This document shows positions 6,531-15,052 of a stretch of 32,000 nt of DNA, one piece after another. A model generated the notes under the pieces. The model was not told the origin of the DNA and ran no database searches. It saw only the letters and a program-made list of their open reading frames with translations. Source of the stretch: Bellilinea caldifistulae. Lineage in GTDB: Bacteria > Chloroflexota > Anaerolineae > Anaerolineales > Anaerolineaceae. The position numbers and the translations under genes are program-made. The stretch's first letter is position 1; every line of letters starts with the position of its first letter. Location of the stretch: assembly GCF_001306055.1 (NCBI RefSeq), contig NZ_LGHJ01000002.1:20754-52753 (forward strand), in the 5' to 3' direction.

Positions 6531-6563
6531 AGCCTCTACTGATCTGCCGATTCAGTAGAGGCT
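6531..6563 (-). promoter_or_regulatory. Terminator-like hairpin inside the 5' leader of the MutS-like gene (candidate attenuator or 5' stabiliser)
   Basis: A 12-bp perfect stem, AGCCTCTACTGA (6531-6542) paired with TCAGTAGAGGCT (6552-6563). On the minus strand it is followed directly by TTTTTG (plus 6525-6530). It lies 27 nt upstream of ATG 6498. A 5-codon uORF ATGAACCCGGTATGGTGA (6520..6503) sits in between. Confidence 0.5.
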
Positions 6564-6600
6564 ATCAGTCATTCGACGGTTAAAGCGAGCCTCATCGCTT

Positions 6601-6643
6601 TTGTGAATTTATTTTATCACAAACCGGTCAGGCATGATAAAAT
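6601..6643. promoter_or_regulatory. Inverted repeat TTGTGA-N10-TCACAA plus an extended -10 for the PEP/pyruvate-binding gene
   Basis: The arms are TTGTGA (6601-6606) and TCACAA (6617-6622), separated by the AT-only spacer ATTTATTTTA. TGATAAAAT (TG at 6635-6636, TAAAAT at 6638-6643) lies 15 nt upstream of ATG 6659. Confidence 0.4.
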
Positions 6644-13125: not shown

Positions 13126-13150
13126 ACCGTCCTCCGCATCGTGGATTAAA

Positions 13151-13193
13151 ATTGTATTATTGTATCATTGAATAATTGTACAAGATAATTATA
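13151..13193 (-). promoter_or_regulatory. Promoter and candidate operator of the ytrA-type operon
   Basis: On the minus strand TATAAT (plus 13188-13193) is followed by the palindrome TTGTACAA (13176-13183). The leader then contains further TACAAT/ATTGTA repeats (ATTGTAT at 13151-13157 and 13159-13165). Confidence 0.5.
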
Positions 13194-13336
13194 GAAAAGT
13201 CAAGGGTTGCTGGATTTGAGTCGGTCAGTTTTTGTTGCGCGGCTTCGCGCCGGTGGGTTGAGGTGAGGGTCATTTACAGGCGGCGCGGCGGTTTCCCCCC
13301 AAGCCGTTGCGGCGGCAAGGGCATGTCATTACGAGC

Positions 13337-13359
13337 CGCCGTCAGGCGGCGTGGCAATC
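13337..13359 (+). repeat. Left copy of a 23-bp direct repeat CGCCGTCAGGCGGCGTGGCAATC
   Basis: It matches 14974-14996 (CGCCGTCAGGCAGCGTGGCAATC) at 22 of 23 positions in the same orientation. It contains the hairpin GCCGCC-GTCA-GGCGGC (13335-13350). Confidence 0.8.
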
Positions 13360-13367
13360 AGAGCGGG

Positions 13368-13425
13368 GCGGCGGGCGTAAGCCCGCCGCAGGGCGGAGCG
13401 CATACCGGCGGGCGAAGCCCGCCGG
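13368..13425. repeat. Two perfect 9-bp-stem GC hairpins sharing the GGCGGGC/GCCCGCC stem
   Basis: GCGGCGGGC-GTAA-GCCCGCCGC lies at 13368-13389 and CCGGCGGGC-GAA-GCCCGCCGG at 13405-13425. They are separated by GCAGGGCGGAGCG, a 13-mer that recurs at 14339-14351. Confidence 0.8.
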
Positions 13426-13560
13426 TGAGCGTAGCCCGTCCCGCTCTTGGCGTGAGGCGCAAAGCCGAGCGGTTATGAGGGAGCAACAAGCGACCGAATG
13501 CGAGGCTTTGCAAGGGGAAGCCCCCCTTGGGGGGGCGGGGGTTTGAGGCGGGGGGGCAGA

Positions 13561-13656
13561 GTGAGGCGGGCTTTGCCCGCCGAACGGAATTATTTTAGGG
13601 GCGGGTTTAGCCGATTGCGGAGCGGAGCGGAGCAACGGCGTTTGAAACCCGCCCCT
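13561..13656 (+). repeat. Structured element A: small hairpin plus a long hairpin with a GCGGA-repeat loop
   Basis: GTGAGGCGGGC-TTT-GCCCGCCGAAC occupies 13561-13585. It is followed by a 12-bp perfect stem, AGGGGCGGGTTT (13597-13608) paired with AAACCCGCCCCT (13645-13656). The stem encloses ...GCGGAGCGGAGCGGAGC.... TACCTT follows. It is homologous to 14544-14624. Confidence 0.75.
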
Positions 13657-13670
13657 TACCTTATTCAAAA

Positions 13671-13720
13671 AAGGGCTTGTCCTTTGCGGGTGCTGGTGTT
13701 TCCGCAAGGTGCAAGCCCTT
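13671..13720 (-). terminator. Strong hairpin followed by a T-run on the minus strand, with no obvious gene to terminate
   Basis: The outer stem pairs AAGGGCTTG (13671-13679) with CAAGCCCTT (13712-13720). The inner stem pairs CCTTTGCGG with CCGCAAGG. The minus strand reads hairpin then TTTTTTGAATAA (plus A-run 13667-13672). The plus strand side has only GTTTTA. Confidence 0.5.
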
Positions 13721-13733
13721 CGAAGTTTTACTA

Positions 13734-13789
13734 CCATATATGGGGGTGTCAATTGTTACTTGTGCCATATATGGGGGATGTGGTAATTT
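13734..13789 (+). promoter_or_regulatory. Twin CCATATATGGGGG boxes and a candidate promoter of the small two-gene cassette
   Basis: CCATATATGGGGG occurs at 13734-13746 and 13765-13777, with starts 31 bp apart. The core CCATATATGG is a perfect 10-bp palindrome. The second box lies between a -35-like TTGTGC (13760-13765) and the extended -10 TGGTAATTT (13781-13789). ATG 13827 is preceded by GAGGAGG. Confidence 0.6.
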
Positions 13790-13826
13790 AAGGATGTTCA
13801 TCTATTCCACTTTGAGGAGGCTATAA

Positions 13827-14081
13827 ATGGTTTTTCGTAATTGTTCCAGTGAGGATGAAGTTTTAGATAATCTTGCTATTCTTTACAGGGTGCAGTTATC
13901 CCTTGTAAAGGACGCAAGAGAGCGGGGGAAAGTGCCTGCTTTCAATATGGCTTATTTTTTTGCGGATGTTTTAGATTGTTTGGGACGGCTAGATTACGAG
14001 GCTTTGGTTAGGGTGATGGGCGAGAGTGTGGCTAGAAAAATTTGGGATGAGGTGAAGCCTTTCAATGGACGGGCGAATTAG
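13827..14081 (+). CDS. Hypothetical small protein (84 aa), low GC, no recognisable family
   Basis: GAGGAGG lies 7 nt upstream of the ATG. The predicted product is helical and acidic (MVFRNCSSEDEVLDNLAILYRVQLSLVKDARERGKV...). The first 120 nt contain 50 G+C by hand count, compared with 41/60 in a hutU line. It overlaps the next ORF by 17 nt. Confidence 0.65.
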   Translation: MVFRNCSSEDEVLDNLAILYRVQLSLVKDARERGKVPAFNMAYFFADVLDCLGRLDYEALVRVMGESVARKIWDEVKPFNGRAN

Positions 14082-14301
14082 TCGGCTTGAGTTTTCCAGA
14101 CGACAAAAACAGGTTTTGGCGCTGATTGCACAAGGTTATACGACCGGTCAGATTGCTTTGTCTTTGGGCATAAGTAAGCGAACCGTTTTGGCTTATTCGG
14201 CATATTTGCGAAGCATGACCGGTACTGCTAACAATGCTGGCCTGGTGCATGTGTGTTGGCAGTTGGGCGTTTTGCCTTTGGATGAAGGCCGGCCTTCCTA
14301 G
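14065..14301 (+). CDS. Stand-alone LuxR/GerE-type helix-turn-helix protein (78 aa)
   Basis: LSRRQKQVLALIAQGYTTGQIALSLGISKRTVLAYSAYLRSMTGTANNAGLV matches the GerE/LuxR C-terminal HTH (LSxRExxVL...G.t..eIA..L.iS..TV..h). There is no receiver or ligand domain. GAGGTGA lies 9 nt upstream of the ATG. Confidence 0.8.
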   Translation: MDGRISRLEFSRRQKQVLALIAQGYTTGQIALSLGISKRTVLAYSAYLRSMTGTANNAGLVHVCWQLGVLPLDEGRPS

Positions 14302-14543
14302 TCGAGCGTAGCCCAAGCCCCGCACGGAGTAAGGGGCGCAGGGCGGAGCGAGTGTGTATGTGAAGCCGAAGCCCGCAAGCGGAGCGTTTAGCGGAGCATT
14401 GCGGGCGTAGGCTTGACCTACCCTTTGCCCCCGCAGGGGGCAAGCGCATTGTGGGGGGCTTGCCCCCCACAGGGCGCAAACTTTCAATGGCGGACATTTG
14501 CTAGCCCGCAGCCCGGAGGGCAAGGGCGGTAGCAAAGGACGCC
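14302..14543. repeat. Right-hand array of GC-rich hairpins
   Basis: It includes GCCCC-N11-GGGGC (14321-14341), GTAGG-CTTGA-CCTAC (14407-14421) and GCCCCC-GCA-GGGGGC (14427-14441). It also includes the perfect 10-bp stem TGTGGGGGGC-TT-GCCCCCCACA (14450-14471). It shares the words GAGCGTAGCCC and GCAGGGCGGAGCG with the left array. Confidence 0.75.
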
Positions 14544-14624
14544 GTGAGGCGGGCGGGTTTTGTGCGTGAGTGAAGCGGAGCGGAGCGAACGCACGAAAAC
14601 CCTACCTTGATTAGCCCGCCGAAC
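14544..14624 (+). repeat. Structured element B, a paralogue of element A with the long hairpin nested inside the small one
   Basis: GTGAGGCGGGC (14544-14554) and GCCCGCCGAAC (14614-14624) now flank GGGTTTTGTGCGT-[GAGTGAAGCGGAGCGGAGCGA]-ACGCACGAAAACCC (14555-14602). TACCTT follows the hairpin. CTTACCTTTTC follows the whole element, compared with CTTACCTTATTC after element A. Confidence 0.75.
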
Positions 14625-14648
14625 TTACCTTTTCTTTCAGGTCTGAAT

Positions 14649-14790
14649 CATGGTTCACGACCGCTGATCGGCACTCACCCACACTCATCAACGGGGCATG
14701 TTCACGACCGCTGACCGGCACTCACCAACACTCATCCACGGGGCATGATTCACGACCGCTTACCTATGCTTGCCAGTGGGGCATGATTGA
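14649..14790 (+). repeat. Tandem 47-48-bp direct repeats (two full copies, one 38-bp copy, one stub)
   Basis: R1 at 14649-14696 is CATGGTTCACGACCGCTGATCGGCACTCACCCACACTCATCAACGGGG. R2 at 14697-14743 is CATGTTCACGACCGCTGACCGGCACTCACCAACACTCATCCACGGGG. R3 at 14744-14781 is CATGATTCACGACCGCTTACCTATGCTTGCCAGTGGGG. CATGATTGATG follows. Unit lengths are not multiples of 3. Confidence 0.85.
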
Positions 14791-14873
14791 TGTTGGCCAC
14801 CAGAGCGTATCACTTACGATTTACTTTATTCACTTACGGCATAAGTTGAATGTTTGCTTACTGCTTTGCGTCA

Positions 14874-14929
14874 GTTTCAATCCGTTGTTCTGAGACGCTT
14901 TATCGAAACTATGTGTTTCAGGGTGAAAC
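14874..14929 (+). repeat. GTTTC...GAAAC-terminated 36-nt segment followed by the hairpin GTTTCA-GGG-TGAAAC, in an AT-rich tract
   Basis: GTTTCAATCCGTTGTTCTGAGACGCTTTATCGAAAC lies at 14874-14909 and GTTTCAGGGTGAAAC at 14915-14929. The surrounding 14800-14965 region is visibly AT-rich and ends in T8 (14954-14961). Confidence 0.5.
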
Positions 14930-14973
14930 GGCTACTTTGCTTTCATTCAATCAGTTTTTTTTATCCTGCTCTA

Positions 14974-14996
14974 CGCCGTCAGGCAGCGTGGCAATC
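14974..14996 (+). repeat. Right copy of the 23-bp direct repeat
   Basis: CGCCGTCAGGCAGCGTGGCAATC matches 13337-13359 at 22 of 23 positions. It lies 57 nt downstream of the stop of the 302-aa gene on the opposite strand. Confidence 0.8.
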
Positions 14997-15052
14997 TCCT
15001 GCACAGGTGATTGAGTACCACTCAACCGCTCTCTATCGGTGCAGATGCCCGA

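Follow-up and report, generated by a model that had tools for sequence, protein, structure and literature searches.

We found that positions 13360-14973 of a 32-kb stretch of Bellilinea caldifistulae DNA (hereafter, the window) probably represent one copy of an undescribed family of 1.6-1.9 kb non-autonomous mobile cassettes of Bellilinea-type Anaerolineae, a reading to which we assign a probability of about 60%. This segment is an insertion that is absent from relatives, occurs twice in this genome and lies between the copies of a duplicated 23-nt host sequence. It carries two small genes, orfA and orfB, which are flanked by two arrays of hairpins (arrays 1 and 2) and followed, beyond array 2, by direct repeats (iterons) and an AT-rich right arm (Table 1). 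All positions are window coordinates, loci of relatives are labelled L003-L029, and both cassette proteins map to B. caldifistulae contig DF967971.1. A preliminary description of the region 13126-15052 had listed most of these features and suggested either a non-autonomous module, acquired or mobile, or a locus that is RNA-based and has a regulator of its own. All the features that it listed were found where it placed them, apart from corrections to the start of array 1 and to a terminator-like hairpin that are discussed below.

The sequences at the two ends of the insert were examined for traces of integration. The 23-bp direct repeat that had been noticed toward each end of the region is real, with 22 of 23 positions identical between the copies. 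In the three insertions for which both ends were visible, the flanking duplications were 23, 23 and 24 nt long and unrelated in sequence, and the best matches between random pairs of 100-nt windows were 8-10 nt. In L005, the duplicated sequence occurs in every unit of the adjoining tandem array. Because the repeated sequence is host sequence, a target-site duplication of ~23 bp is the simplest reading. A model based on an integrase and att sites was ruled out, since the sequence of the flanking repeat differs between insertions. Similarly, an integron gene cassette was rejected: no attC R''/R' cores (RYYYAAC..GTTRRRY) were present at the boundaries and no integrase was found among the neighbours. 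The host also has dispersed tandem units of 84/93 bp (..GTCATTGCGAGC..GCGGCAATCTCCCGCAAGACCGGCGGGGAGACCCCTCACTCCGTTCGGGGTGACATTAAGGGG..), which form arrays at L005:8168-8797 and L005:15064-15740 and are present as remnants at 13210-13359 and 14974-15006 of the window; the array at L005:15064-15740 is annotated as a 278-aa protein, probably a spurious call.

The second copy is located on the same contig, ~36 kb away (L005:8777-10902), and its helix-turn-helix (HTH) protein is 85% identical. A 648-N assembly gap (L005:8808-9455) in the public B. caldifistulae assembly conceals most of array 1 in this copy. Altogether, copies of the element were observed in at least five distinct flanking contexts. 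In the window, the flank is a remnant of a host repeat unit beside a GntR gene, and the element of L005 adjoins the end of an array in which seven 94-bp units stand in tandem. In L006, L007 and L008, a CRISPR array of ~57 repeats, with its leader toward cas4, ends in a degenerate repeat, and the element begins at the very next base. The flank is the rpmF terminator in L009, an ABC permease gene and a clp-type gene in L021, L020 and L012, and other genes are the neighbours in L019 and L022. The order of components was constant in every lineage (array 1, boxes and promoter, orfA, orfB, array 2, iterons, AT-rich arm), with the arm scored for order only where the contig extends that far. The CRISPR array (L006:5186-9326, L007:1-98 and L008:1-101; repeat ATTGCACCCCCCTCGATCCGCTTGTGGATACTGAAAC) adjoins cas3-cas1-cas2-cas4; its last spacer in L006 and L008 differs from that in L007, and its repeat includes TGTGGATAC, one mismatch away from a DnaA box. 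The L010 contig opens (L010:1-100) with an inverted duplication of the hairpin segment that includes H1 of the element, probably produced by misassembly at a long palindrome.

These copies were identified in two ways. Searches with the HTH protein matched L005, L006 (a Chloroflexota metagenome-assembled genome, MAG), L007 and L008 (Logan contigs) and a more distant lineage, L009/L010. A DNA pattern of the array-2 core detected L012 in genomes and L019-L022 in JGI metagenomes; the single match in the genome scan was the MAG Bellilinea sp. H69_726 (L012), and the representative assembly of the host itself was unmatched in that scan. A blastn search in 'distant' mode with the whole region gave no match in plasmids and phages, and two pattern scans of viral contigs gave 0 matches. 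The distribution of the element is narrow, being that of Bellilinea-type Anaerolineae.

The corresponding site was also found without the insert. In the syntenic relatives L016-L018, the gap between the GntR gene and the gene for a 302-aa protein is only 825-1125 bp long and has neither the cassette nor the arrays, while the 302-aa protein is 84% identical and the order GntR...302-aa...hutU is kept. The comparison with relatives that the preliminary description had proposed therefore revealed a presence/absence polymorphism, and synteny of the stretch does not extend to all relatives. The expected insert-free relatives were found, but no clean empty site with a single 23-mer was recovered, since the gap is, across the genus, a hot spot for repeats. 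Within it, a ~150-bp unit (..GGCGTCTTTGCGCCTTTGCGTTAATGATTTTGCTCC..GGCGATCTCCCGCAAAGCCATTG..) stands 2-4 times in tandem at L016:6909-7804, L017:6909-8034 and L018:4075-4900, tandem repeats of the relatives' gap carry GGC(A/G)ATCTCCCGC, and an assembly N-gap is located within it in L016. The only open reading frames (ORFs) of the insert are those of 84 and 78 aa, and no transposase or recombinase gene was found inside it. The second copy, the different contexts, the 23-24-nt duplications, the absence in syntenic relatives and the lack of a transposase agree with the module suggested by the preliminary description. A transposase encoded elsewhere would mobilize the cassette in trans by a staggered cut of ~23 bp, and insertion would prefer repeat-rich, hairpin-prone DNA such as tandem units of the host or the terminus of a CRISPR array.

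Table 1. Features of the cassette and of its flanks (window coordinates; MFE, minimum free energy).
Feature	Position	Strand	Basis or remark
Host divergent promoter/operator region of GntR (ytrA-like) gene, outside insert	13126-13209	-	Same sequence in insert-free relatives; promoter-like site TTGACT-17-TACAAT at 13203-13175, - strand; tandem word AATTGTAT at 13150-13180
Host-side repeat debris ('GGCAATC-unit' family), outside insert	13210-13336		Partial copy CAGGCGGCGCGGC at 13277-13289
23-nt flanking direct repeat, left copy, target-site-duplication-like	13337-13359	+	End of host repeat unit (GTCATTACGAGC-N16-GGCAATC)
Insert: non-autonomous mobile cassette (probable), 1614 bp	13360-14973	+	Homology stops between copies in different contexts, plus flanking repeats
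Array 1, first domain, three-way junction	13360-13447	+	Closing stem 13360-13371 / 13436-13447; inverted repeat and MFE fold
Array 1, conserved core	13448-13560	+	Stem 13459-13466 / 13504-13511 (GCAAAGCC/GGCTTTGC); four G-runs, 13514-13556
Hairpin H1	13597-13662	+	Inverted repeat; loop GCGGAGCGGAGCGGAGC (13617-13633), then CTTACCTT
Long hairpin between array 1 and promoter	13671-13720		Inverted repeat
Two operator-like boxes CCATATATGGGGG	13734-13746 and 13765-13777	+	Palindromic core; 31-bp spacing
Extended -10, TGG-TAATTT (putative promoter)	13781-13789	+	Read from sequence
Shine-Dalgarno GAGGAGG	13814-13820	+	
orfA, 84-aa orphan protein	13827-14081	+	Four predicted helices
orfB, 78-aa stand-alone LuxR/GerE-type HTH	14065-14301	+	GerE E = 2e-11; 17-nt overlap with orfA
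Array 2, putative structured 3' domain of operon transcript	14302-14640	+	Core 14395-14640
Array 2, terminal nested hairpin	14548-14554 / 14614-14620 (outer stem)		Loop GCGGAGCGGAGCG at 14575-14587; then CTTACCTTTTCTTTC
Iterons, three 47-48-bp units plus partial fourth	14649-14790	+	Each unit opens CATG(A)TTCACGAC
AT-rich right arm	14791-14973	+	Conserved block ~14838-14935 (GGCATAAGTTGAATG..TTCAATCCG..TCTGAGACG..AGGGTGAAAC); terminus ..TTTTTTTTATCCTGCTCTA
23-nt flanking direct repeat, right copy	14974-14996	+	
Flanking duplication, window			CGCCGTCAGGCRGCGTGGCAATC
Flanking duplication, L005			CGAGCGCAGCGAGCGMGGCAATC
Flanking duplication, L021			(A)AAGTTGATGTGAAAATGATTTAT
Element termini as search words			AGAGCGGGGCGG.. 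/ ..ATCCTGCTCTA and GGCAAGGGGGCGG.. / ..CCCCATTGTA
Uninterrupted-target sequence, example			GAAACTCGAAAGTTGATGTGAAAATGATTTATCCCGAATTGACG

The two genes form a segment that is lower in G+C (46.3%) than array 1 (68.8%), array 2 (63.4%) and the window as a whole (58.2%), as the preliminary description had noted from a hand count of its first 120 nt (50/120, which was exact); the right arm is at 39.3%. The extended -10 promoter would drive an orfA-orfB mRNA, and a -10 element holds the equivalent position in all lineages, among them L005 (TGTC-TATAAT), L006 (TGA-TATAGT), L009 (TGC-TAAACT) and L019/L022 (TATAAT). Of the two palindromic boxes, box 2 stops 3 nt short of the extended -10 and box 1 is 31 bp upstream. 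The product of orfB had its nearest NCBIfam model in the small regulator PedR (1.3e-8, under the cutoff of that model) and otherwise matched only generic LuxR/sigma-r4 models. Judged from sequence, it is likely a repressor that binds the boxes, and it would repress its own promoter through these two sites, which overlap and precede the promoter. The boxes are kept in every Bellilinea-type lineage. We assign them, rather than the iterons, to orfB because both the boxes and the recognition helix of the HTH are conserved across Bellilinea lineages and the iterons are variable. The distant relative L023 has a different HTH and different upstream repeats.

In contrast to orfB, orfA gave no match in Pfam, PHROGs, PADLOC or NCBIfam. 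Its AlphaFold2 (AF2) model contains four helices (mean predicted local distance difference test score, pLDDT, 78.6), and a Foldseek search with this model against PDB and BFVD returned nothing at E < 1; matches to helix-hairpin-helix/SAM-like proteins were weak (E > 3) and uninformative. Two close homologues were found among 5.8 billion clusters, and an exhaustive profile search yielded 8 clusters at E <= 1e-3 among 1.84 billion representatives. In the distant homologues L023 and L026-L029, the orfA-like gene is followed by an overlapping small HTH gene and then by G-rich hairpins ending in CCCTACC. Since these distant loci keep both the pair and the hairpins, the link of the protein pair with structured RNA is old.

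It has been reported that acr-aca operons, which encode an anti-CRISPR protein (Acr) and its associated regulator (Aca), have one palindromic box in the core promoter and another like it nearby (PMC9410906). The cassette resembles them in several ways: a small orphan gene precedes an overlapping small HTH gene, what may be the operator lies in the core promoter with a second copy upstream, and the operon is carried by a mobile element (PMC9410906). It could be, then, that the cargo is an anti-defence module in which orfA inhibits host immunity, the HTH protein is an autorepressor and the flanking RNAs are possible decoys. We consider this rather unlikely, although it is compatible with a mobile cassette, as what it addresses is the role of the cargo. 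In one lineage, the element adjoins a CRISPR array beside cas3-cas1-cas2-cas4, but this adjacency is confined to that lineage, and the RNAs of the element are unlike the adjacent CRISPR repeat. Besides, orfA resembles no known Acr or other anti-defence protein in sequence or fold, the HTH is of the LuxR/GerE type and matches no Aca family, large structured RNAs flank the operon, and the phage, plasmid and viral collections contained no copies. In the distant locus L027, the gene upstream of the orfA-like gene (L027:364-654) has a precomputed weak label, 'PF26761 Acb5'; this label would favor an anti-defence role, but our own Pfam scan returned nothing and left it unconfirmed.

The iterons and the right arm suggested a further alternative, an integrated miniature replicon or satellite in which the iterons and the AT-rich arm are an origin, the HTH protein acts on the iterons and the G-rich RNA primes replication as in Rep-less ColE1-type plasmids. 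The tandem 47-48-bp repeats of the preliminary description were reproduced by TRF as a 47-bp unit (2.4 copies at 14653-14764), followed by a partial third. As in an iteron-type replicon, these direct repeats stand beside an AT-rich segment, which is conserved even in the distant L012/L021 lineage (alignment A4). G-run tracts and large structured RNAs are also present, and the promoter boxes recur in a cluster of DnaA boxes of the host, a putative oriC. However, no Rep protein was found, the region 13126-15052 contains no DnaA box, and plasmid and phage records were unmatched. Moreover, the number and spacer of the iterons vary (1 in L003, 6 in L005), and other lineages have different units with a common TGATTC core; their sequence and number shift between close relatives while the recognition helix of the HTH remains constant. 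We therefore regard a replicon as improbable. Such a unit would excise and re-integrate through the flanking repeats, but flanking repeats of fixed length and unrelated sequence suit a staggered cut better than recombination.

Several observations on host sequences touch on this part of the element. The DnaA-box cluster is in an intergenic region (L005:17540-17960) that has 3 exact DnaA-box words (TGTGGATAA/TTATCCACA) and ~5 with one mismatch and looks like a chromosomal oriC. Within it (L005:17585-17935) are the palindromes CCCCCCATATATGGGGGG and CCCTATATATGGGGGA, located at L005:17683 and 17841, with a core identical to that of the promoter boxes. The cluster is ~7 kb from the second copy, and both copies of the element lie within ~10-50 kb of it. 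In the right arm, a 36-nt word (GTTTCAATCCGTTGTTCTGAGACGCTTTATCGAAAC, 14882-14917; GTTTCAATCC..ATCGAAAC) begins and ends like a CRISPR repeat; it is kept in L003 and L005, and in the L021 lineage only its first ~22 nt are kept. The idea that this word mimics a CRISPR repeat was dropped, since it is unlike the CRISPR repeat of L006 and only ~22 nt are conserved in L021.

Most of the insert consists of the two arrays. Array 1 and the insert share their first base. The preliminary description had placed this array at 13230-13660; the array itself stands, but not its start, as the insert opens at 13360 and 13210-13336 is host debris. The architecture of its first domain is kept with different stems (for example, AGTAGCGGGGCGG.. 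in L006 and AAGGCGGGGCG..CGCCCCGCCTT in L019/L022). In its core, RNAalifold predicted 27 pairs, 8 of which had compensatory changes (alignment A8), such as GCAAAGCC/GGCTTTGC to GCAAACTGCC/GGCGTTTGC in L020. In 5 lineages, the nhmmer profile of this core matched each element once (E = 1e-32 to 1e-41), and it gave no match elsewhere. The loop of H1 is invariant over varying stems in all 6 of the aligned lineages (alignment A6), with a variant loop in L005, and this 17-mer is confined to element-bearing loci (14/25). The hairpin at 13671-13720 was kept in L003, L005, L009, L011 and L020 and absent from the L019 and L022 lineages, and a different hairpin with a U-run takes its place in L006. It may be an insulator or a terminator. 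The preliminary description had called it a minus-strand terminator-like hairpin, which did not hold: the hairpin is lineage-variable, and it is not specifically of the minus strand because the U-rich run follows on the + strand in L006. A strict terminator scan found none within the region.

Array 2 provided stronger statistics. In an alignment of its core with 11 sequences from 5 lineages (A7; window 14395-14640), 58 consensus pairs were found, and 21 of them had compensatory double changes (13.0 +/- 1.6 in shuffles; 0/500 reached the observed value). Paired cells amounted to 97.2%, versus 85.9 +/- 0.9% in shuffles (again 0/500), and slid controls showed 38-45% paired cells and 1-6 double-change pairs. 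Such changes could also be recognized by eye in the terminal nested hairpin, in which GGCGGGC..GCCCGCC of the window corresponds to GTGCGCCAC..GTGGCGCAC of L005 in the outer stem and GTGCGT..ACGCAC to GGTGGTG..CACCACC in the inner stem. In L004, array 2 is ~97% identical while the gene products reach only 78% identity. Compared with dinucleotide shuffles, the + strand folds of arrays 1 and 2 had z-scores of -7.0 and -6.8. As judged by covariation, the arrays are two conserved structured domains rather than repetitive extragenic palindrome (REP)-like filler, and together with an HTH gene behind a putative promoter with two palindromic boxes they support the earlier suggestion of an RNA-based locus that has its own regulator.

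The two arrays are not paralogous copies, an idea that was rejected because their profiles did not detect each other; only motifs are shared, namely (GCGGA)n loops, CTACC and GTGAGGCGGGC..GCCCGCCGAAC. The words that the preliminary description had found in both arrays are five, and each occurs exactly twice in the window, on the + strand only and in this region only. The covariance-model scan that it had advised matched no family to the arrays: Rfam 15 gave nothing beyond noise for the region at the gathering threshold and at E <= 10, and five related loci gave no match. No tRNA or tmRNA was found. Elsewhere in the window (6549-6608, - strand), Rfam recognized a fluoride riboswitch (crcB motif, RF01734; 40.4 bits, above the gathering score), which is unrelated to the cassette.

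With regard to function, array 2 would be the structured 3' part of the operon mRNA, which would end in the terminator-like nested hairpin and a U-rich run. Array 1 would be transcribed solely by read-in from the flank and would insulate the cassette, because its start coincides with that of the insert, which leaves no room for a + strand promoter of its own. A protein probably docks at the (GCGGA)n hairpin loops, which are each followed by CTACC; orfA is the obvious candidate for the docking protein, so that the cargo would possibly be a small ribonucleoprotein. CsrB and RsmZ are small RNAs that sequester protein by means of repeated loop motifs. Several hairpins of the element similarly show a short G-rich loop motif (GGA/GGAG in GCGGA repeats), but there is no sequence or Rfam similarity to these RNAs, the motifs are embedded in two large multi-helix domains on a mobile cassette, and in L019 one of the GGA loops reads GGU.

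The arrays might instead act as single-stranded DNA, as subterminal hairpins of a non-autonomous element that is mobilized in this form, whether IS200/IS605-like or other. The conservation is strongly strand-specific, array 1 opens the insert, both strands fold well, and many array loops are of the GCGNAGC type, which forms very stable mini-hairpins in DNA. On the other hand, elements of the IS200/IS605 type make no target duplication, which is 23 nt here, and array 2 ends ~330 nt short of the right end; an IS200/IS605-like model was ruled out by the duplication and the boundary sequences. Invariant G-U pairs and complex multi-helix junctions are also more typical of RNA. The G-U pairs are conserved on the + strand in the array-2 alignment, and the + strand MFEs are below those of the - strand; these two features favor a + strand RNA. 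As a whole, a DNA role of the arrays seems quite improbable. About as improbable is an RNA-centred mobile element, in which the two RNAs and two tiny proteins would select targets with repeats or hairpins, CRISPR repeats among them, and direct the insertion that produces the 23-nt duplication. In such a case, no conventional element-encoded transposase would take part; for example, an RNA-protein complex could recruit a host nuclease or integrase.

Ordinary spacer, that is, generic REP-like hairpin filler around an unremarkable small regulator gene, is the least probable explanation and is already contradicted by the evidence at hand: the intergenic gap of the relatives is a repeat hot spot and the host has a separate family of dispersed tandem 'GGCAATC units' beside the insert, but the arrays and two genes are kept in fixed order in every lineage and context, the arrays have compensatory changes, array 2 of L004 is better conserved than its coding region, and the long array words and the array profiles (one match per element) occur nowhere else in the rest of the window and 11 fetched loci (~143 kb). 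The arrays are GC-rich palindromic intergenic hairpins like REP elements and bacterial interspersed mosaic elements (BIMEs); unlike these, they are single-copy per element, 250-340 nt long, equipped with conserved junctions and covariation, and always accompanied by the two genes. The preliminary description was correct in that this is not ordinary spacer DNA.

Returning to the non-autonomous mobile cassette, a number of observations weigh against it. Two of the three duplicated targets are related host repeat units, both ending in GGCAATC, and the nearly identical 23-mers of the window and L003 may reflect one inherited insertion. The terminal inverted repeats are weak, with matches at only 7 of 8 nt (AGAGCGGG / AGAGCAGG in the window and CAAGGGGG / CAATGGGG in L020). 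The insert ends (AGAGCGG.. / ..CTGCTCTA in the window and GGCAAGG.. / ..CCATTGTA in L020) are not TGT..ACA as in the IS1202/Tn7 type. As described above, the gap of the relatives carries other repeats in place of a clean empty site. The cognate transposase was not found, the whole host genome not having been scanned. Finally, conserved G-U pairs and strand asymmetry are the only features that favor RNA over single-stranded DNA, and both the binding of orfB to the boxes and that of orfA to the RNA are predictions.

Among known systems, mobile insertion cassettes (MICs) are transposase-less units with inverted repeats and target duplications that are mobilized in trans (PMC3913671). The element is similar to MICs such as MIC231 of Bacillus cereus and mic-qnrD in being a 1.5-2 kb unit that has passenger genes with their own promoter and no transposase, is bracketed by a target duplication, occurs in more than one copy per genome and is presumably mobilized in trans (PMC3913671). 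In contrast, MICs have 20-50-bp terminal inverted repeats that match a known insertion sequence (IS) and duplications of 2-12 bp, whereas this element has ~8-nt inverted termini, a 23-nt duplication, no known partner IS and a cargo that is mostly structured and non-coding. Target duplications of 16-28 bp have been reported only for the IS1202 group, which has TnsB-like DDE transposases, and the 23 nt observed here fall within this range (PMC10132070). However, these IS are ~1.5 kb long and have 24-26-bp inverted repeats (5'-TGT..ACA-3') and a transposase of 440-460 aa, none of which the element has; no ORF for a TnsB-like DDE transposase of ~450 aa was found in the region. Our literature search for 23-bp target duplications turned up only papers on CRISPR targets.

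Two large structured RNA domains (~250-340 nt each) that have no Rfam match and an orphan protein family with 8 clusters among 1.84 billion representatives are new, and both are tied to this mobile unit. Transposase-less cassettes that have mainly folded-RNA cargo and generate 23-nt target duplications are not a described class. Such regions also break assemblies, as with the N-gap in the second copy, and yield spurious ORF calls. If found, the mobilizing enzyme could reveal a new long-stagger transposition system. In addition, the operator-like boxes that are shared with the putative oriC and the lineage located at the end of a CRISPR array lead to hypotheses on crosstalk of the element with host replication and immunity.

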